Below are positions 4,605-37,126 of a stretch of DNA of 64,000 nucleotides, piece by piece. The notes under the pieces were generated by a model, which saw nothing but the letters and a program-made list of their open reading frames with translations, made no database searches and had not been told where the DNA came from. Every line of letters starts with the position of its first letter. Positions within the stretch are counted from its first letter, which is position 1. The DNA is taken from positions 1-64,000 of the IMG/VR virus record IMGVR_UViG_3300026549_000029; one strand, written 5' to 3'. Origin of the DNA: a virus (taxonomy: Duplodnaviria; Caudoviricetes). The position numbers and the translations under genes were made by a program.

Positions 4605-4985
4605 GTGTATATGACTAAACCTAATAATACTGGTCTTTCTTGGAGACAAGTATGGTTTGAATTATTGAATGGACGGAAGATTAAACGTCCTACTTGGAAA
4701 GGGTATTGGATTTGGGAAAATAATACAATTATGATGTATTGTGCTGATGGAAATATTCTTGATATTAGAGAAACAGAGAATCCTGCTTATACCTTTACTA
4801 ATATTGCAAGTAATGATTGGGAAATTCTTCCTGATAATTATGAGTATAAGCCTTATGCTTCTCCTAATAAAAAGAAAGAAAAAGAAGATGCAGATAAAGC
4901 TGTTTCCGAATGGCTCAATAGTTCTATTGATTCATCAGCAACAGCAAATTGTACTATTGATAGAGAATCTATGTCTGGAGATTGA
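4605..4985 (+). CDS. DUF2829-like (Tad2-like) protein
   Basis: L-x-x-G-R-K-I-K-R-x-x-W-x-G...IASNDWEI pattern typical of DUF2829. Confidence 0.55.
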   Translation: MYMTKPNNTGLSWRQVWFELLNGRKIKRPTWKGYWIWENNTIMMYCADGNILDIRETENPAYTFTNIASNDWEILPDNYEYKPYASPNKKKEKEDADKAVSEWLNSSIDSSATANCTIDRESMSGD

Positions 4986-4989
4986 TAAT

Positions 4990-7333
4990 ATGTCATTAGA
5001 AAAAATTAAATATGGATCTTTATTTCAGGATTCTCATAATAAAAATAATTTTCTTCATTATGATGATAAAGATATAGTATCTACATCTTTTACTTATCCT
5101 CATAGTGATGAATATGAATATGAATCTTATATAGAATATATTGATTTTGATGCTGAACGAAAACTTGATATTGATTCTGGTAATGGATTTGAAGTAGCTC
5201 CTTCTGGAAGAAATATTAAGAAAGATTTGAAAGCAGAAGATGGATTATTCTCTAGAAGATTTGGACAAACATTAGCAGATGTTAATCCTTTTATTGATAG
5301 ATATCGTTGTCATTGTACAGATGATGGTGGATTAAGAGGAAGAATTAATGCTGGATTGCGTTGTCCTAGATGTGGTCATTTATGTGAATATGTAGATGAT
5401 AACTTTAGTTATTTTGGTTGGATGGTCTTAAAAGATCCATTTGTAATTATTCATCCTGCATTTTATAAGAAAATAGATACTTTCTTAGGAAGAGGAATTA
5501 CTATACAGGGAGTAAAAAGAACTAAATTAGAAAATATTCTTGATATTTCAGATATAGTAACTCCTTTATCTAGTAAAGCTATTGAGACTAAGATGAAGGA
5601 CGAACCCTATTTTGGAATTGGTATGGTTGAATTTGTAAAGAAATTTGATGAGATTATGGATTTTTATTTGCGAAAAAGACCTACTAAAAAAGAAAATTAT
5701 GATGATATTTATGAACACAGAAATATAGTATTTACACATAGTATACCAGTATTTACTACGTTATTAAGACCATTTGATATTAAGGATGGTAATATGACAT
5801 ATGAACCTACTAATGCTATGTATACTATGATGAATAAATTAGTTACTACTATAAATAAGAATCAAACTAAGATACAAAGAGAACCAAAAATTAAGAATCA
5901 GCAATTATATAATTTACAGAAGAAATTCATGGAATTATATACAGAGCTGGAAACAATATTAAGTGGTAAAAAAGGAGACTTTAGATGTTTATTAGGGGGA
6001 AGATATAACTTTAGTAGTAGAAATGTTATAGTACAGAACCCTGATTTAAGAATTGATGAGGTGACATTACCTGTCATAGGACTCAGTATTATGCTTGAAC
6101 AGAGAATAAAAAATATACTGTGTAGATTATATAATATGAGTCCTAATGAAGCCCATCAATTATGGTATAAATCTACAATAGAACCTGTAGATAGAATAAG
6201 TAGTATAATACAGAGCATAATAGATAATGAAAAAGCCAAGGGATTACCCGGCTTAATAGTACTAATAAATAGGAACCCTAAATTGTGGGGCATTAGGGGG
6301 AAACTCCTAAATGAAAACTGTGTGAATTGCTGGAAGTAGCTAATGCCTCTATGCCTATATGGAGAGAAATCAGAAATAAGTTAGAGGATTAGAGAAGGAT
6401 AAAAAATAATTCCTAACTCTTGTACAATGCTTAATCAGCAGCCAAGCTCTATATAAAAATATAGAGAAGGTTCAACGACTATCCAAGAGGAGTAGAGTTA
6501 GCAAATAACTCGAAGTGCATAGTACCTAAGTCTAATAATATTAGATATGGTAAAGATATAGTCTAAAAATAAGATAAATGACAATTTCATATGGATTATA
6601 ATATTAGTCCCATTTAATATGAAAATATTAAATGAAAACTGTGTGAATTGCTGGAAAATCCTAAAGCTCTCTTGCCTATATATTAGGAGCGAAAGCAGAA
6701 ATAAGTAGAGAGATGATCTATGCTGAGATAAAAGCTATATTATTATATAATATAGTGCTAAGGATTATTAACAATGGATAATCAGCAGCCAAATCTTTAT
6801 AATGTAAAGAAGGTTCAACGACTATCTCTGATGAATGTAAGAGAGTAGGGCTTAAGTAAGCTCGAAGTGCACAGCACCTAAACTAAATATATTTAGCATG
6901 GTGATGATATAGTCTAGTCTCTATTGAAAGAATAGAGTAGTTCATAAAAGAACAGTATAAAGCTAACAACTTTATATGACTTAACGCAATATTATGCATG
7001 TTCTGTATTGGTTTTACTGAGACTTATACCATGGCATTACCGCTTCAGATTTTGCCGCTATTGGCTGCAGACTTTGACGGCGACGTTCTCAATATTCTTC
7101 TTCCTATAAATCAAACTTTTATTAAGCTTGCTTGGGAGAAATTTAATCCTAGAAATGTTATGTATATATCTAGGAATGATGGTTATTTTAACTCTGCTGT
7201 ATCTATGCAGAGAGATACACTTATTAATGCTAATACATTAGCTCGTTGTGGTAGAGATACTTATACTCAAGAAGATTTAGAGAATTTTGATAAACTTTTT
7301 AAGCTTAAAGAATCTCTACTTAAATCTTATTAA
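4990..7333 (+). CDS. multisubunit RNA polymerase beta-prime N-terminal subunit, join(4990..6279,6581..6596,6987..7333)
   Basis: Zn-finger CHC...CPRC, GKKGDFR...GGRYNFSSRNVI; spliced product reads NRNPTISYGSILCMFC...LAADFDGD (catalytic motif). Confidence 0.93.
6280..6580 (+). mobile_element. group I intron 1 in RNAP beta-prime gene (no ORF)
   Basis: Exon ends in U, intron ends in G; core GAATTGCTGGAA, AATCAGCAG, TTCAACGACTA, AAGATATAGTC; 6280-6286 AAATTGT is exactly complementary to the next exon ACAATTT (P10). Confidence 0.92.
6597..6986 (+). mobile_element. group I intron 2 in RNAP beta-prime gene (no ORF)
   Basis: P1 GGAU/GUCC with U-G pair at 6596; same core motifs as intron 1; ATAATATT pairs with exon 3 AATATTAT; terminal G 6986 restores the frame (T+CA = Ser). 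Confidence 0.92.
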
Positions 7334-12540: not shown

Positions 12541-14178
12541 TTAATTTAATAATATCATAGCTTTATTATATAATTTATCAAATGTATTTTCTTCTATATC
12601 TTCATATTGTTCTAATGGTAAAGTAACAATAATTTTCTTAATCATATTATCTACTACTTTACTTTTATAATCAATTAATCTACCTTCATACATACAATAA
12701 AATCTATCATCATTACTTAATTTATCTATATCTGCAGGGGTTACTTCTTTATCTCCTTTTGTAGTCTTTATTTTAAAATTAGCCAATTTTAAAATAGAAT
12801 ATACAAATTGACTACAAATCATTTTATCTTTATCTTCACTATATTTATGATTTCTAATAGCGATATCAAAAATATTTCCAAAATTATATTTTGTTTTATT
12901 TTGATTTTCTATATACCATATTATAGTATCAAGCATCATACTTTTTTGTTTAGGAGTAACAAATAAAGAATATACTTTAATCCTTACATCTCTATTTTGT
13001 CTTAAATATAACTCTTTTCCTTCTATAGAAAAACCATTTACTAAATTATATCCATCTTGATAAAGATTAAATGAATATAAAATATTTAATGATGAATCAA
13101 ATCCCATAGATGCATGTGACCATTTAGAATCTGTAAACCATTTTATAGCAGATCCAGCAGGAGAATTACCAGATACTAATACTACAAATACTGGAACAAT
13201 TTTATCTTTGAGATTCTCATAAGTAGCATTATTAGGAATTTCTTCTATAGCAGGTTTGCTAGCTTCTTTTATATAAGATTCTCTTAAATCAAAAAACCTT
13301 GTTGATTCAAATTTTGGATATCTTATATAAGTTTTATTAGCAGCTTCTAAAGAGAAAGGAATTTCTGGATTCCATCCAAGATTATAAATAGATTCTTTAA
13401 TAGCAGATCTTTTTTCTCTATTTGAAGTAGAGTTAAGTTTTACATAGAGAGTTTCTAACATTCTAGACCATTTATATGGCCCACCTGCTTCTTTAATTGG
13501 ATCTGTAGATTTAAAATCAGAAGCCAATTCATAAGGAGTATAATATGGCCTAGCTTTATCTAAGATATCAAGATCTTCTTCAGGATTATCATCTGAAGGA
13601 GTAGGTTCAATATCATTTTCTATTCTTTTAATATGTTTATTTAAAATTATATCATAAAGAGCATAATTATCAAATCCTAAAATATCTCTAGCAGTATCAT
13701 TAGATAATTGTCTCTTATCATAAGATAATGATTGAAATTTATTCCATTTTTCTTTAAGTTTAGCAATTGCCTCTTCTGAATAATCTTCAAAAAAGCCAGA
13801 TTCTGTATCTATCATAATAACTAATCCTTCAGATTCAGCTTTTTTCACTTTAATAATTTTATCTTCTATATCATTTACTACTAAAGTTTCTATATCAGAA
13901 GAAGATTCATTCAAATCTTTTAATATATCTTCTAAAGATATTCTAACATCTTCAGGTGTTATATCTCCTAAATTTTTATTAGGATCTATTTTATCTAATA
14001 GAGCAGTCTTAAGTTTATTATATCTTGTAATATTATCAGAGCCAAAATTATCAATGGAAATATCATTAGATACTTTTCTCTGGTAATATGTCATTGAATC
14101 AAATTTAGATTTCCAATATTCTAAATCTTCTAAATTATCAATATCTGGAGGTAATACCATATACATATGATCATTCAT
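12541..14178 (-). CDS. virion-type protein with C-terminal permuted papain-like NlpC/P60 (YiiX/YebB-like) domain
   Basis: IKWFTDSKWSHAS...KYNF...MICSQFV, with His preceding Cys as in permuted NlpC/P60. Confidence 0.7.
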   Translation of the reverse strand: MNDHMYMVLPPDIDNLEDLEYWKSKFDSMTYYQRKVSNDISIDNFGSDNITRYNKLKTALLDKIDPNKNLGDITPEDVRISLEDILKDLNESSSDIETLVVNDIEDKIIKVKKAESEGLVIMIDTESGFFEDYSEEAIAKLKEKWNKFQSLSYDKRQLSNDTARDILGFDNYALYDIILNKHIKRIENDIEPTPSDDNPEEDLDILDKARPYYTPYELASDFKSTDPIKEAGGPYKWSRMLETLYVKLNSTSNREKRSAIKESIYNLGWNPEIPFSLEAANKTYIRYPKFESTRFFDLRESYIKEASKPAIEEIPNNATYENLKDKIVPVFVVLVSGNSPAGSAIKWFTDSKWSHASMGFDSSLNILYSFNLYQDGYNLVNGFSIEGKELYLRQNRDVRIKVYSLFVTPKQKSMMLDTIIWYIENQNKTKYNFGNIFDIAIRNHKYSEDKDKMICSQFVYSILKLANFKIKTTKGDKEVTPADIDKLSNDDRFYCMYEGRLIDYKSKVVDNMIKKIIVTLPLEQYEDIEENTFDKLYNKAMILLN

Positions 14179-25722: not shown

Positions 25723-25908
25723 AAAATAAAAATATAATAAAGGCTAGAGATTAATCTCTAGCCTTTATTTTTTCTATATCAGGATCTTTATGATCCTTGT
25801 TTTTGATCCATTCAAGATCTTTTCTGGAAAGCATATTTGGATTCACAAAAATCTGTGAACCCTCTTTTGTAAAATTACCTATACATAGCTGAACCCTTTT
25901 TCTTTTTT

Positions 25909-26145
25909 TCATTTCCAATTTTCCCTCCAATCTTCTAAAAATACTTCTATGAGCCTGCAAATACTTACATCTTTGCAGACTTTTGGACAGAACCAAAGAA
26001 CTGTAATTATTGGTGCTAATAATAGCATATGGGTATTGTCATGAACTGAATCTGTTACAGTTACCCAAGTACCAAATGCAAGTAAAATAATACCTAAAGA
26101 AATCTGAAAAATCCGATCAACAAGTCTCTTTTCTTTTTTACTCAT
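25909..26145 (-). CDS. small two-TM membrane protein
   Basis: Two hydrophobic segments, GGGGGA SD. Confidence 0.6.
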   Translation of the reverse strand: MSKKEKRLVDRIFQISLGIILLAFGTWVTVTDSVHDNTHMLLLAPIITVLWFCPKVCKDVSICRLIEVFLEDWRENWK

Positions 26146-26451
26146 TTTTTATATCCCCCTGAAAAATTATTATTACATTAACTTCATTTTTATATTTCTT
26201 AATTAAAAATATTAACTTTTAAATTATATACAACACATTTATAATCAGATGAAGATTATCCTCTTAGGTGTGCTAACTACCTTTGTTTTCTCCTTATTCA
26301 TGATTCAAGATCATGTTTCTCTCTTAGGGTTCTTCTTCTGATACTCATGTTGCCGCCTCTGTTAGTACTCCTAGCAGAGGAATGATTATTATATTCAGTA
26401 GGTAGGTTTACTACCTACTGGATTTTATTATAGTAGGAGGAATTTTATTAC

Positions 26452-31595: not shown

Positions 31596-33389
31596 ATGAA
31601 AAAAGTATCTAAACACCCAATGAAAAAATCTGAGTTAGATCGATTAAAACCGATTATACAGGAGAAACTGGTTATGAAAGGAGTGTCAAACCGAGCTATG
31701 AGAGAGATTGCTAATGAACTTGGTATAGATGCCGGATTAGTTGTAAAAATTAAACAGAGAACTGATTCTAATTTTTATAAGAAAGAACCAGTTCCAGTTG
31801 CAACTGAGACATCTATTCAGACAGTAGCGATGCCAGTTTTGACAGAAGCTATACCTGTTCCAGAACTGGAGGATGCAAAAGAAGAAAAAGAAAAAGATCT
31901 TAATGAAAGAAAAAGATTACAACTCGATAAAGTAAGAGAAAAAGCTATTACAGCAAAGAAGCATTTTTTAACAGCAGAAGAAAAAAAGAACCTTATTAGA
32001 GATTATAAAAGTGGTAAATATTCTCAGCAGAAACTTGCAGACATTTATGATGTCTGTACTGGTACAGTAGGAAATATTCTTAAGAAAGCAAAAACGAAAG
32101 AGGGTGAGGGAATGAAAAGAAAGGGTAAGATTACAACTAAGAGGAATAGAGATAATAAGAAACGGCAGCCTATCATTCCCAAATCAAATACTTCTATTGT
32201 AACTACAAATACTACTGCAGAAAATGCTGAAATTTATGCAGTAGTTAAGTTTGTCACTGACATCCCAGTATATGAAAAAGAATTGATAAATAAAAAGAAT
32301 ATTATCTGGGCACTATCGAAAAATAGGGATATTAGTGATCTTGGACCTGATCTTTATATTAACTCAAAAAATGATATGAGGAAAATCAATGATCTGAGAG
32401 GAAGATATTATTTAGTATCTTTCTCAAATAATAAGCTGCAGTTAATTGATTTCTTTGATGAGACAAATAAAGAAATCATTCCATATGCTCAGGAGACATC
32501 TATCCTTTATGAAAATGAGGATGGGATTATTAGTAATAGTCAGATTGTAGAAGCAATTAAAATCATTTTAAAGTATGATAAATCCATTGAAAGAAGTAGA
32601 CTTAGATTAGATGATTTTGTACTTGATCCTTCTAAGTTCACTAATCTGCAGAGAATTTTCGGTTTTGATAAATTCTCTTTCAATCTTGCTTCTAAAAATA
32701 ATTCAGTAACTGTAGAAGCAGGATTGGTAGCAGATAGGCATAATATGCCTGTTGGAAGATTCATTTATCCTGAAGCATTATCTCAGGATTTGATGTTTAA
32801 CTATCCTGAGCAGGAAAGAATTGCTCAGGATTTTCTGAAAGCAAATTTCGATTTTGATCCTGATAGTAATGATAAAAGGATCAAAGTTTTAAAATTGTAT
32901 ATTACTGGAATGCAGTGTGCTTTTGCTGCTGTGATGAAGGTGTGTACAGAGATGGGGGTTAATCTAGTTGCAATGCATTATAACTCTGCAACTGGAGGGT
33001 ATGTTCCCCAGTATATTGTGGGACAGGCAGAAGAAACTGGAGCATATGTGAAAGGATTTGATAGAATTCTTTCACAGAAAAGTCTTAATGGAGACATTCT
33101 TCTGTTTAATTGTACTTATGAAGATTTCTCTGAGACTAATATTGACAACTTTTATATCATGGAAGCTGCCAAAATGAGAAATACAAGTAGTACAGATAAC
33201 CAGAAGGATGAAAGCATTATAATTGTGATTAAGAAAAGGGAAGATATTTGGAAGATCTATCCTACTGTATTAGATCACATTATAGATAATGATGGACTTA
33301 ATCTGGCAGTATGGGTAACCACTGCTCGGATTAAGGAGAATAATCTTCAGTGGGGAATGAATATAATTAAGTCATTTAATTATAAATAA
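31596..33389 (+). CDS. multi-HTH protein with C-terminal CARF/Csx3-like Rossmann domain (tentative)
   Basis: HTHs SNRAMREIANELGI and SQQKLADIYDVCTGTV; GL...RH.MP...LYITG...HY motif. Confidence 0.5.
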   Translation: MKKVSKHPMKKSELDRLKPIIQEKLVMKGVSNRAMREIANELGIDAGLVVKIKQRTDSNFYKKEPVPVATETSIQTVAMPVLTEAIPVPELEDAKEEKEKDLNERKRLQLDKVREKAITAKKHFLTAEEKKNLIRDYKSGKYSQQKLADIYDVCTGTVGNILKKAKTKEGEGMKRKGKITTKRNRDNKKRQPIIPKSNTSIVTTNTTAENAEIYAVVKFVTDIPVYEKELINKKNIIWALSKNRDISDLGPDLYINSKNDMRKINDLRGRYYLVSFSNNKLQLIDFFDETNKEIIPYAQETSILYENEDGIISNSQIVEAIKIILKYDKSIERSRLRLDDFVLDPSKFTNLQRIFGFDKFSFNLASKNNSVTVEAGLVADRHNMPVGRFIYPEALSQDLMFNYPEQERIAQDFLKANFDFDPDSNDKRIKVLKLYITGMQCAFAAVMKVCTEMGVNLVAMHYNSATGGYVPQYIVGQAEETGAYVKGFDRILSQKSLNGDILLFNCTYEDFSETNIDNFYIMEAAKMRNTSSTDNQKDESIIIVIKKREDIWKIYPTVLDHIIDNDGLNLAVWVTTARIKENNLQWGMNIIKSFNYK

Positions 33390-33481
33390 TAACATTTAAA
33401 GGGTGGGTATAAAATAATAATTTACTACTCCTGTAACTAATAAATACAAAGTTGCAGGAGTAGTAAAGTAAAAGATAAAAA

Positions 33482-33893
33482 GGTCTTATTGGATATTATA
33501 CATATATTTTATGTATAGGTAGTTTCGATTACTGTCAAGACTATTAGTATCACAGAGTTATTTCCGAAATATGAAGTAGGATAGTAATAAAGGTTTTGGT
33601 TATAAGCAATAGCTCTGGCTAACCAATTTATTATTTATTATAAAATAATAAGCCTTGTTATAAAGCTGTGATGCAAAGAGCTTTAGGAAATGAGTTTTGA
33701 TATATTTTGTAATTTCCTAATATAATGATGGAAAAAATATATCTGGGCAAAGATTTAATATTTATTAAAACTCTAATAAGTATTAAATTGTCCACCACTT
33801 GAGTAACCTATTGAAGAGTGGTATCTAGTATTTATTATGGTACTAGATGTTTTTATATATAATAATAGACTGATCAACTAATATTATATATAG
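33482..33893 (+). ncRNA. candidate large structured ncRNA A (pseudoknotted)
   Basis: ORF-free, nested helices and two crossing pairings (see findings). Confidence 0.55.
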
Positions 33894-33914
33894 ATAAAAA
33901 TACATAATACAATA

Positions 33915-33988
33915 CGGGGTGTAGTTCAGCTCAGTAGAACGCTTGATCTGGGATCAAGAGGCCGTGGGAGCGAAGCCCACCACTCCGA
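33915..33988 (+). tRNA. tRNA-Pro(UGG), atypical (C33, T-loop AGCGAAG), no encoded CCA
   Basis: Full cloverleaf: CGGGGTG/CACTCCG, CTTGA-TCTGGGA-TCAAG. Confidence 0.8.
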
Positions 33989-33989
33989 T

Positions 33990-34270
33990 GCCTAGCATAT
34001 AAAAATATTTTATATAGCTAACCTGGAGGGCCAGGCGTTTGGGTTAATACGACATAACCCATTATTTAGTGAAAGAGTGATTGGGCAATACTTCCATTAT
34101 CATGGTGCAGACATGCATAGTATTTATAGAGGAGGTCCCTATAAATATAAAAGGCCAATCTAGGATAGAATCTTCGGATAATCACTGCAGGATACAGTGT
34201 GAACTGAGCATGATAAGACTATCTGAAATTCGGATCATGAGTTAGTCATGGTGGATGCATCATGCAGTAT
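33990..34270 (+). ncRNA. candidate structured ncRNA B between tRNA-Pro and tRNA-Ile2
   Basis: GC-richer than the genome, several hairpins and long-range pairings. Confidence 0.5.
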
Positions 34271-34279
34271 ATTAATTTT

Positions 34280-34353
34280 GGAGCATTAGCTCAGTTGGTC
34301 AGAGCAGTCGGCTCATAACCGATCGGTCCCAGATTCAAATTCTGGATGCTCCA
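34280..34353 (+). tRNA. tRNA with CAU anticodon, likely Ile2 (lysidine) rather than Met
   Basis: Cloverleaf GGAGCAT/ATGCTCC; arm GTCGG-CTCATAA-CCGAT resembles Firmicute tRNA-Ile2. Confidence 0.85.
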
Positions 34354-34362
34354 CTCTATCTA

Positions 34363-34435
34363 CTCATGGTAGTCAAGCAGTAAAACACAGGACCTTAAAT
34401 CCTGCATTTTGATGTTTCGATTACATCATACCCTA
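34363..34435 (+). pseudogene. degenerate tRNA (Gln-like) with UUA anticodon and unpaired acceptor stem
   Basis: CAGGA-CCTTAAA-TCCTG and GATGT-TTCGATT-ACATC arms intact; 5' acceptor strand does not pair. Confidence 0.55.
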
Positions 34436-34466
34436 TTATTTTTTGTAATTAAAAAGGATAATAAAT

Positions 34467-35057
34467 ATGTCAGAATATAAAAGAGTTTCTTGTCCAAAAG
34501 ATCATCCAAAATATAAAAATAATGGAAAAAGACAAAGAATAGGTGAACATATTTTAATAGCAGAAAAGAAGATTGGAAGATATTTAAAAGATAATGAAGT
34601 TGTTCATCATATTGATGAAAATAAAAAGAATAATAATCCTAATAATCTAATTGTATTTAAAAATGGATCATATCATACATCTTTTCATGATGGAGCAAAA
34701 TTAATACAATTAAATGATGGAACATATATAACAGAAAGAAAAACTATAACAGTAAAAACGGAAAATAATAAACGTGGTGTAAAAGTAATTTGTCCAGTAT
34801 GTAATAAAAATTATATGAATAATTTATCATCTATGTGCAGAGAATGTTATATTAAATCAAATAAAAATTTTAATTATGATATTCCAGAAAAAGAAAAATT
34901 AATAAATAATTTTGTGGAAAATGATTTTAATAAATCTAGAATAGCAAGATTATATAATGTATCTCAAAACTCAATAAGAAAATGGTGTAAAAAATATAAT
35001 ATAAAAGATGTTATAATTAATATTAATATGAGTAAACCTACTAAAGAACGAAAATAA
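34467..35057 (+). CDS. free-standing HNH homing endonuclease (HNH + Zn ribbon + HTH)
   Basis: EH..IAE...VVHHIDENKKNN..NNL...H..FH; CPVC..CREC; IARLYNVS..SIRKW. Confidence 0.88.
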   Translation: MSEYKRVSCPKDHPKYKNNGKRQRIGEHILIAEKKIGRYLKDNEVVHHIDENKKNNNPNNLIVFKNGSYHTSFHDGAKLIQLNDGTYITERKTITVKTENNKRGVKVICPVCNKNYMNNLSSMCRECYIKSNKNFNYDIPEKEKLINNFVENDFNKSRIARLYNVSQNSIRKWCKKYNIKDVIININMSKPTKERK

Positions 35058-35074
35058 ATATTAATATTTATTTA

Positions 35075-35792
35075 AGGAGTGATCTGGTAATACCTTCCTA
35101 TCAATATAGGTTGCTGATGAGCGTAAAAAGGCAGATCTTAGTGTTGATAGTTTAATAAAATCTCCTCCTGTGAATTTTTATTAAACTATATCTTACTATC
35201 TAGAGTATAGTAAGGTTGGGACCCATATACCTATACATGAAGACTGGATATGGAGTTAATGGCAGACATGTCATGCTTATTATGTTTTTCTATTATAGAT
35301 GTCAAAGTTTATAATAGAATTTAGTAACTTCTAATGGTAATCTGGCCAATTACTATTACCTTGTTTCTGCAAAACATATGAGAAAGTACAACTCATAATA
35401 GGGTTTAAAAGAAGTTGCAAGCAGAATATACTGAGATTTTATGAGTTTGATCAGTATATAATGTAAAACTCCTCAAGGGTATAAACAAAGACTGTGTAAT
35501 CTTTGGTAGATATACCCTCTCTTGATTTGCCAGGTTAATGTTAATAAAGGTTTCATCCTAGGCATAGATAGAGTTGGGATGTGAGAAGTCCCTGGAAAAC
35601 TTCGAGAGCAACTAAGCTACTAGATCGTAGTTATAGGCTTGGCTAAGAATCAAGGAGTACTAGCTATCTTAGTAGGGTATAGAAGAATGGGAGAGGCCCA
35701 TCTACTAAAACCGGAAGAGGCAGTAGCTTCTTAGATTGCTTAGATGTAGAAGTATAAAAAATCTGCTGGCAATATATAAAAGTATTGCCAGT
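35075..35792 (+). ncRNA. candidate giant structured ncRNA C (~720 nt)
   Basis: ORF-free, continuous multi-branched helices, directly upstream of tRNAs. Confidence 0.65.
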
Positions 35793-35802
35793 ATTATTTT
35801 TT

Positions 35803-35873
35803 GCCCCCTTAGTATAAAGGTAGTACTATGGCCCTTGAAGCCAGTGGAAGTGGATCGTTACCACTAGGGGGTG
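35803..35873 (+). tRNA. tRNA-Gln(UUG), atypical (C33, T-loop ATCGTTA)
   Basis: GCCCCCT/AGGGGGT, TGGC-CCTTGAA-GCCA, AGTGG/CCACT. Confidence 0.75.
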
Positions 35874-35878
35874 CTTCT

Positions 35879-35950
35879 CTCCGATTAGCTTAATGGTAGA
35901 GCACTGAACTTTTAATTCAGCTTATATGGATTCGACTTCCATATCGGAGA
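35879..35950 (+). tRNA. tRNA-Lys(UUU)
   Basis: CTCCGAT/ATCGGAG, CTGAA-CTTTTAA-TTCAG, TTCGA loop. Confidence 0.88.
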
Positions 35951-35954
35951 TTAT

Positions 35955-36036
35955 GCTCGGCTGGTGGAATTGGCAGACACAGCGGATTTAAGCTCCGCTT
36001 CCGGAAGGAGTAAGAGTTCGAATCTCTTGCCGAGCA
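35955..36036 (+). tRNA. tRNA-Leu(UAA)
   Basis: GCTCGGC/GCCGAGC, GCGGA-TTTAAGC-TCCGC, long variable arm. Confidence 0.92.
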
Positions 36037-36296
36037 TTAATATTTAATTCCAAGATTTGAAGATATAGGTATTTCTAAAATTAAATATTAATTATATTTC
36101 TATAAGAGATTAATCTCTTATAGAAATAATTTATTAAAAAACTATTTTATTTTTTTTTTTGAATACTTCTATATAATATAAATTCTTATAATCTTATTTT
36201 ATTAAATAAAAAGGTGAAACAAATAATTTAAATAAATTTATGAAATCATTATTATAATTTTATTATATAATATATAAAAAGGGGAGTAAATATATT

Positions 36297-36794
36297 ATGG
36301 CTATTTTTAGTGTTAATGATAGTAGTTTAGGTGAGTATTTGAATGAGCATGGTGGTGCTCATAATAAATATGCAAAAATGATTGCTGATAAAGATAAAAA
36401 ATTAAAAAATAGAGAAGAAGCATTTAGAAATATAGGAACAGATGCTGCTAATGAAAAAGCCGATAAAGCTAGAAGAGAAAGAAACGAGCTTGCTGATAAG
36501 AATTTAAAATACATTGATGATTACGGAAATGATTATATATCTAATGTATATAAAAAGAAAAAAGAAGATGAAAAAAGTGGAAAAACTGTAAACTATTTTC
36601 AAAAGAATCAAAGAACTAGCTATGCAGAAGGTAAAAAGAGATTTAAAAGAGATTTTGGTAGTAAATCTAAAGATACTACTAATACTAATGATAGAAGGCC
36701 TGGAACTTATTTAGATGCTCAAAAGAAACTCAGAGAAGCAGCAGAATATATTCTTTCTGTTCTTGATGAATCTGAAAAAAAAAATGATAGATAA
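36297..36794 (+). CDS. putative internal head protein with MAIF leader
   Basis: MAIFSV...YLNE, highly charged body, LREA/LDES near the C-terminus. Confidence 0.55.
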   Translation: MAIFSVNDSSLGEYLNEHGGAHNKYAKMIADKDKKLKNREEAFRNIGTDAANEKADKARRERNELADKNLKYIDDYGNDYISNVYKKKKEDEKSGKTVNYFQKNQRTSYAEGKKRFKRDFGSKSKDTTNTNDRRPGTYLDAQKKLREAAEYILSVLDESEKKNDR

Positions 36795-37126
36795 TAAGGA
36801 ATTAAATAATGCATTTAAAAATGCAGTTAAATCTAAAGCTAAAGAATTATCTAATAAAGGAAAAGTTGTAGATATAAATTCTCTTCCGGATAATGATGAT
36901 AATTATATAAAAGATAAAATTAAAAATAGATTAAATAAATAATAAAAATAAAATCAAAAATTAGATAATATTTGTCTAAACTTAATGATCTTTTATAATT
37001 AATATTATTTTTATAATATACTAAACCCAATAGGTTATTCCTATTGGGTTTAATTATCTAAAAAACTCTTTTATAATATTTGATAAAATATATTTATACA
37101 ATATATTATAATAAGGAGAAAATAAA

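Follow-up and report, generated by a model that had tools for sequence, protein, structure and literature searches.

A hairpin-rich 745-nt region in the tRNA island of a rumen jumbo phage: a probable composite leader or spacer RNA headed by a diverged copy of a small leader-RNA family

What kind of RNA, if any, is specified by a long, hairpin-rich and ORF-free stretch of DNA directly upstream of phage tRNA genes? The question is raised by a window of 64,000 nt, being the first 64 kb of the 287,868-base IMG/VR virus record of a cow-rumen jumbo phage. The window is AT-rich (coding GC 0.275) and includes genes for a phage-type multisubunit RNA polymerase, UvsX and DnaB; the sequencing runs in which the stretch was found are all bovine gut metagenomes. 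The whole genome has five tRNA genes, located in a single island: tRNA-Pro (at 33915), tRNA-Met (34280), tRNA-Gln (35803), tRNA-Lys (35878) and tRNA-Leu (35954). Such phage tRNA islands are increasingly viewed as counter-defence loci, and enigmatic RNAs such as GOLLD, ROOL and the T4 species I and II are encoded there. The region under study, candidate C (35058-35802, + strand), is an ORF-free, GC-enriched stretch of 745 nt, which extends from the stop codon of a homing endonuclease gene to the tRNA-Gln gene. In the initial annotation, about 720 nt of it was taken for one ornate RNA, either a divergent member of the GOLLD or ROOL RNAs or a new class, and was counted as one of three such RNAs in the island.

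The helices that had been read from the sequence are real as base complementarities, since all twelve pairs were recovered: AGGAGT (35075) with ACTCCT (35468), GATCTG (35081) with CAGATC (35132), a 14-mer at 35147/35176, CTTACTAT (35192) with ATAGTAAG (35207), and the pairs at 35288/35308, 35324/35411, 35332/35349, 35426/35451, 35476/35511, 35521/35648, 35669/35702 and 35766/35783. The helix AGGAGT/ACTCCT, which would close the first large domain (about 400 nt), comprises 6 bp and is by itself not significant. The absence of coding sequence was also confirmed, as no ORF of at least 40 residues is present in 35058-35802, with the exception of one spurious frame that opens with TTG and continues into the tRNA. 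A tblastn comparison with the ORFs of the fetched loci revealed no protein remnant in C, and the idea of a decayed gene was rejected on the same grounds, there being no similarity to any of these ORFs. The GC content along C is 0.30-0.42, compared to 0.16-0.25 in other intergenic regions of the window and 0.275 in its coding DNA.

Folding statistics are less telling than the list of helices might suggest. The minimum free energy (MFE) of C is -206.6 kcal/mol on the + strand and -167.7 kcal/mol on the - strand, with a z-score of about -5 for either strand relative to dinucleotide shuffles. Seven coding control windows of 745 nt gave z-scores from +0.3 to -5.95; as coding controls can reach values like those of C, the MFE z-score was rejected as proof of function. 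Likewise, the seven perfect local stems of at least 8 bp in C correspond to the 95th percentile of 745-nt windows and do not exceed it. The folding energy and hairpin density of C are thus high, yet not unique in this AT-rich genome. The control with the lowest value, 32000-32744, is coding sequence for a 597-aa protein and folds as strongly as C, which may either call for caution with z-scores in this genome or reflect a hidden, embedded RNA structure. Four contigs from other samples contain C with zero differences, so that its sequence is unchanged in all five samples, which come from several studies.

Known RNA families gave no match to C. When positions 33000-37000 were scanned with cmscan and permissive filters against the 4227 families of Rfam 15, tRNAs were the only matches at E<=10. 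Neither the ROOL model (RF03087, cut-off 99.1 bits) nor the GOLLD model (RF02032, representing the conserved 3' region, cut-off 150 bits) gave a match at E<=10 anywhere in the 288-kb genome; for the former, the control genomes lack ROOL and so provide no positive control. The proposed relationship to GOLLD or ROOL therefore lacks support, with these two models and all 4227 Rfam families silent at E<=10. Models of group I and group II introns had no match in C at E<=10, and the same group I model did detect two introns at 6270-6937 (61 and 73 bits); this agrees with the earlier impression that C has no hallmarks of an intron, RNase P or tmRNA, to which both Rfam and ARAGORN attest. The two group I introns are arranged in tandem, directly after an RNA polymerase beta-like ORF (4741-6339). 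At the nucleotide level, blastn with C produced no match among the 50,697 phage records of INPHARED, no match in the 274-kb relative G001 or any other fetched related island locus, and only C itself in its own genome. A new class of about 720 nt is accordingly not established, as homologues of C were found neither in related islands nor in INPHARED nor in the rest of the genome, and the strains are invariant.

The island was compared with that of G001 (loci L002 and L041), with an unrelated 29-kb phage contig (L019), and with further relatives (L042, L055-L060 and L080-L084; 43-95% protein identity) that were found via the 597-aa protein encoded ahead of the island. RNA B (34071-34270, + strand), which ends about 10 nt before tRNA-Met, is the canonical member of a family of two-module RNAs of about 160-210 nt. 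The 5' module starts with an invariant AGAGU, followed by helix P1 closing a junction with the hairpins P2, P3 and a variable P4, and in this junction the strands CAAUACUU and AAAAGG are invariant. In the 3' module, UGAAA..C.GG lies within P5; next come GAGUUAGUCA and P6, a 7-bp hairpin whose loop is GAUG. Counted over 9 and 8 distinct sequences for the two modules, compensatory changes were found in four of the six pairs of P1, two of four in P3, three of six in P5 and three of seven in P6. Paired cells amount to 93-99% overall and to 100% in P1, whereas shuffled and slid controls came nowhere near these values. Judged from these alignments, B is a conserved structured RNA.

The position of the family relative to tRNA genes is nearly constant. 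In G000, G001, L019, L042, L055, L080, L082 and L084 the end of P6 is 7-16 nt from a tRNA gene (Met, Pro, Gln or Ile2). L057 and L058 are exceptions, as in both an inserted ORF of 75-81 residues (L057 7669-7914, L058 7676-7903) separates the B RNA from tRNA-Met. The island thus accepts protein as well as RNA insertions. In L019, a perfect TTGACA-17-TATAAT promoter is located a few nt upstream of the B-type element; the same contig carries, about 1.3 kb 3' of this element (13592-13660), a type II hammerhead ribozyme scoring 38.7 bits, just over the cut-off. The family is not in Rfam. Patterns of its motifs were found in IMG/VR only in G001 and L019, and gave only chance matches in 185,579 prokaryote genomes (the conserved upstream motif being absent, and without a model match). 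We conclude that this is a well-supported family, new with respect to Rfam, and that its distribution is narrow.

Some other properties of the family were noted. A small ORF in the 5' module was considered and rejected, since the GTG frame is open in B and L019, but closes after 3-19 codons in C and in the L042 and G001 copies. In every member an alternative pairing is possible between a conserved 5' GUGAUU, overlapping P1, and a 3' AGUCAY, overlapping P6; this pairing may hint at a switch, but both strands are near-invariant. The conserved 5' motif, UAAGGAGUGAUC in C (35074-35086) and AAAGAGUGAUU in B (34073-34084), is nearly complementary to the sequence at the 3' end of bacterial 16S rRNA, GAUCACCUCCUUA. 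This complementarity could be due to chance or could indicate a ribosome-directed role.

Covariance models of the 5' module (R1) and the 3' module (R2), both built without C, place the first approximately 210 nt of C in this family. R1 matches 35073-35143 with 35.7 bits, far ahead of its second match at 17.8 bits, and R2 matches 35213-35281 with 24.5 bits, its second match reaching 9.8 bits; the E-values, calculated for the 64-kb window, are 1.4e-6 for R1 and 5e-4 for R2. The matches are colinear, occur on the + strand only, and are separated by a 69-nt linker (35144-35212) with two perfect hairpins (35147-60/35176-89 and 35192-99/35207-14), at a position that is variable in the family and differs in length among its members. 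Within the 5' module, P1 (35081-86/35132-37), P2 (35097-101/35106-110) and P3 (35112-15/35120-23, with a GAUG loop) are present, together with the junction strands UAAUACCUU and AAAAAGG, while the variable hairpin P4 is missing. The 3' module has P5 (35223-28/35248-53) around UGAAGACUGG, then GAGUUA, and P6 (35259-64/35269-74), in which the loop is GACA and one pair is G-U. P1 (GAUCUG/CAGAUC) and P2 (CCUAU/AUAGG) are new compensatory variants, and the unconstrained MFE fold of C includes P1, P2, P3, P5 and P6. Sequence-only HMMs (nhmmer) barely see the two modules (E 3.9 and 8.6), showing that the match of R1 and R2 rests on structure. We conclude that 35073-35281 is a diverged paralogue of B.

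C shares with the B family the order of P1, P2, P3, P5 and P6, the + strand, the same tRNA island and the junction strands AAUAC.UU, AAAAGG, UGAA..C.GG and GAGUUA. It differs in its lower scores, the lack of P4, the swapped loop types of P3 and P6, the 69-nt linker, and the presence of 520 nt extra instead of a nearby tRNA; moreover, its position is not orthologous in any relative. Orthologous B RNAs score 62-112 bits with R1 and 79-99 bits with R2, all far above the modules of C, so that the copy in C could be decaying. With its B-type unit ending at 35281 and the tRNA beginning only at 35803, C is well outside the spacing of 7-16 nt. C is the largest and oddest member of the B family, occurring in one lineage only. 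Several G-U pairs had originally been taken to fit RNA-level selection on the + strand; this view is supported for the first approximately 210 nt only, by the covarying family and the R1 and R2 matches; G-U pairs are found there in P3 and P6. As for the three RNAs supposed to occupy the island, B and the 5' part of C belong, as paralogues, to a single family, the third, candidate A, being a separate conserved element. Candidate A (33390-33914, about 525 nt, upstream of tRNA-Pro) has 68-84% nucleotide identity to most of the related islands fetched and the strongest folding z-scores of the island (-6.9 on the + strand, -4.9 on the - strand), with no Rfam match. If a large conserved RNA is sought, A may be a better choice than C.

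The remaining 520 nt of C comprises a lineage-specific hairpin-rich segment (35282-35473, + strand) with a z-score of -3.6 on the + strand versus -1.5 on the - strand and no relative found, ending in the ACUCCU (35468-73) that is complementary to AGGAGU (35075-80). This is followed by a second predicted domain (35474-35763, + strand), the most GC-rich part of C, with a hairpin at 35476/35511, a helix at 35521/35648 that would close about 130 nt, and a helix at 35669/35702. The 3' end (35764-35802, + strand) is a terminator-like hairpin of 12 pairs followed by UUAUUUUUU, which directly abuts the tRNA-Gln gene. The pattern of an intrinsic terminator (35764-35793, 12 pairs, then TTATTTTTT) is present here, as a pattern match only. 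The part 35474-35802 as a whole folds better on the + than on the - strand. No relative of the 520 nt was detected with R1 or R2 run with filters off, in the fetched relatives, or elsewhere in the genome.

Long forms of a comparable layout do exist, as in G001 a B-type 5' module heads the 490-nt spacer between tRNA-Pro and tRNA-Met (z -5.3); the tails of this spacer and of C could not be aligned with MAFFT. G001 also contains two paralogous D elements, D1 before tRNA-Met (L002 10787-11279) and D2 before tRNA-Gln (L002 11354-11638), with crossing pairings (ATCAG/CTGAT and CCATA/TATGG) that form a possible pseudoknot. A model built from D2 (R3) recovers D1 at 27.7 bits. A resemblance by eye of the D elements to C 35470-35670 (CAAGG-hairpin-CCUCUCUUGA...UCAAGGAG-hairpin) was discarded, since R3 gave 4.5 bits at this site and 9.7 bits at best, neither being significant.

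The surroundings of C indicate how it was acquired. Directly 5' of C lies a gene on the + strand (34467-35057) for a free-standing homing endonuclease of 196 aa with HNH_3 and HTH domains (Pfam PF13392, E 9.5e-10). Directly 3' of C lies a divergent tRNA-Gln(UUG) gene, here called tRNA-Gln' (35803-35874, + strand, 43.9 bits), the body of which is unlike the tRNA-Gln of all relatives. In the 95% relatives L055 and L056, tRNA-Met, -Gln and -Lys follow back to back, without the HNH gene and without C; in L057 and L058, tRNA-Gln follows 13-30 nt after the HNH gene, and in L080 it does so after a 3' remnant of the HNH gene. The left junction is located at 35074/35075, with homology ending at 35074, after which the relatives continue with tRNA-Gln and the window with AGGAGUGAUC. 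On the right, the match to relatives sets in again near 35866, within the 3' acceptor strand of tRNA-Gln'. None of the related tRNA islands examined has C. Since C and tRNA-Gln' together fill the place of the ordinary tRNA-Gln of relatives, they arrived by recombination, and co-conversion with the endonuclease gene is most simply the route of arrival. Homing endonucleases in phage tRNA clusters, such as SegB of T4, are known to transfer flanking DNA of the tRNA region (PMC2330249). Homologues of the HNH gene occur in tRNA islands of relatives without C, and one (42% identical) in the tRNA island of an unrelated phage, again without C.

Other observations in this part of the window concern the tRNAs and their neighbours. 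A degenerate tRNA with anticodon UUA (34363-34435, + strand; partial tRNA match of 24.7 bits) is alignable to tRNAs of relatives; its acceptor stem is unpaired, its 5' part aligns with the tRNA-Gln of L055 and its 3' part with the tRNA-Ile(tat) found in L042 and L082. The gene looks as if it had been left to decay once C and tRNA-Gln' had arrived. The sequence pattern of tRNA-Gln' had no match in IMG/VR, and neither did a 165-aa protein encoded downstream have an IMG/VR relative. Six metatranscriptomic runs from four studies contain 21-91% of the sampled words of 34300-36100, bearing in mind that RNA libraries can carry DNA. Two short Logan contigs from different runs (L064 and L067) begin at 34300/34301, inside tRNA-Met, and one of them stops at 36124, in the terminator after tRNA-Leu; they are either transcript-shaped contigs or the result of assembly breaks at sequence common to co-occurring phages. 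Elsewhere in the window, 25723-26451 is another 729 nt without an ORF of 90 residues and with a GC content (0.30) above the spacer baseline.

On balance we lean, if only slightly, towards C being a composite, lineage-specific leader or spacer RNA of the phage tRNA transcription unit. Other readings of the same data have to be weighed against this. It is distinctly unlikely that the whole of about 720-745 nt forms a single large RNA, ornate and functional, that represents a new class and has the B-type module as its 5' domain. The GC enrichment over the full length, the z-score of about -5 on the + strand, the preference of both 35282-35473 and 35474-35802 for the + fold and the G001 spacer of 490 nt, headed by a B-type 5' module and with a z-score of -5.3, would all agree with such an RNA, and large RNAs beside phage tRNA islands are well established (PMC5737381; 10.1101/2024.12.08.627333). 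However, the 3' 520 nt is without a homologue anywhere searched, covariation evidence is nil with strains that are invariant, C is missing from all close relatives and thus dispensable for the clade, and AGGAGU/ACUCCU is only 6 bp long, its motif being conserved in the family for other reasons. Quite doubtful, too, is the more ambitious proposal that B and C make up a new class of structured leader RNAs in which C, as a 745-nt expanded form, acts as one large RNA; C would then be a third kind of large tRNA-island RNA beside ROOL and GOLLD in rumen phages, with a three-way-junction core sensing or binding something that controls tRNA supply. That C is instead a divergent GOLLD or ROOL RNA seems hardly credible, even though size, phage origin, cow-rumen source and tRNA adjacency are alike (PMC5737381; 10.1101/2024.12.08.627333). 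RF03087 and RF02032 stay silent at E<=10 genome-wide, no Rfam family is found in 33000-37000, and the sole part of C with relatives belongs to a different and much smaller family. ROOL and C have in common a length of several hundred nt, many predicted multistem junctions, a phage-borne location, the cow rumen and adjacent tRNAs; the length of C is ROOL-like and its MFE folds show several junctions, with no homologues or strain variants to compare. Unlike ROOL, with six junctions and three pseudoknots defined by covariation, C is without covariation and does not match the covariance model. GOLLD resembles C in being large, phage-borne, near or enclosing tRNAs, and modular with one conserved and one variable part, but the conserved part is at the 3' side in GOLLD, whereas in C it is small and located at the 5' end, and the model does not match. 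The location of C near phage tRNA genes is a feature that is not specific to ROOL and GOLLD.

A contrary possibility, which we regard as unlikely, is that C is a non-functional recombination scar, i.e. a decaying B duplicate with filler dragged in along with the endonuclease and the replacement tRNA-Gln. The confinement of C to one lineage, module scores far under those of true orthologues, the lost P4 and altered P6 loop, the adjoining degenerate tRNA, and a hairpin density and z-score within the range of this AT-rich genome would all fit with a scar. Filler would nevertheless be expected to drift to the 12-20% GC of other spacers, whereas C keeps 30-42%; moreover, the five family helices are intact, with new compensatory pairs, and C is identical across the five samples from several studies. 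The adjacent homing endonuclease gene, the insertion relative to kin and the two group I introns in the same window also bring to mind a self-splicing intron or other mobile RNA element tied to the HNH gene. We consider this very improbable, since the group I and II models are silent in C and yet detect 6270-6937, the HNH gene is present without C in relatives, and C interrupts no gene but replaces the 5' flank of a tRNA. Among the points against the favoured composite leader, a strong terminator-like hairpin just before a tRNA is a poor fit with simple co-transcription, and the B-type unit in C lies 520 nt from the tRNA, unlike in most members. Taken together, C is a probable composite leader or spacer within a new small family, and not a proven giant RNA.

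If C is such a composite leader or spacer, it would be transcribed on the + strand, with or just ahead of tRNA-Gln', -Lys and -Leu, and cleavage by RNase P at the 5' end of tRNA-Gln' (35802/35803) would set it free. The 12-bp hairpin at its 3' end may protect the RNA, or may partly terminate transcription and so attenuate read-through. The B-type module would be the functional core, possibly a protein- or ligand-binding three-way junction, which may influence how the downstream tRNAs are expressed or used. In that case the other 520 nt would be accessory hairpin-rich RNA. RNAs encoded among phage tRNA genes have a precedent in phage T4. The T4 RNA species I and II are about 120-140 nt long, shorter than C. 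They are small stable RNAs located among tRNA genes, co-transcribed with these and released by tRNA processing, and the homing endonuclease gene segB is present in the cluster. A map of the T4 tRNA gene region shows both RNA species (PMC2330249).

C is a variant among the already known structured RNAs of phage tRNA islands. It carries a caution, in that many hairpins in succession do not by themselves amount to a giant RNA where the phage genome is very AT-rich. What is added is a small, covariation-supported family outside Rfam, the members of which stand before tRNA genes in one clade of rumen jumbo phages; its junction module of about 90 nt is a concrete, testable object, suited to structure probing or to pull-down of a ligand or protein. 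The locus is also an example of an RNA of this kind being duplicated, enlarged and carried along with a tRNA beside a homing endonuclease.
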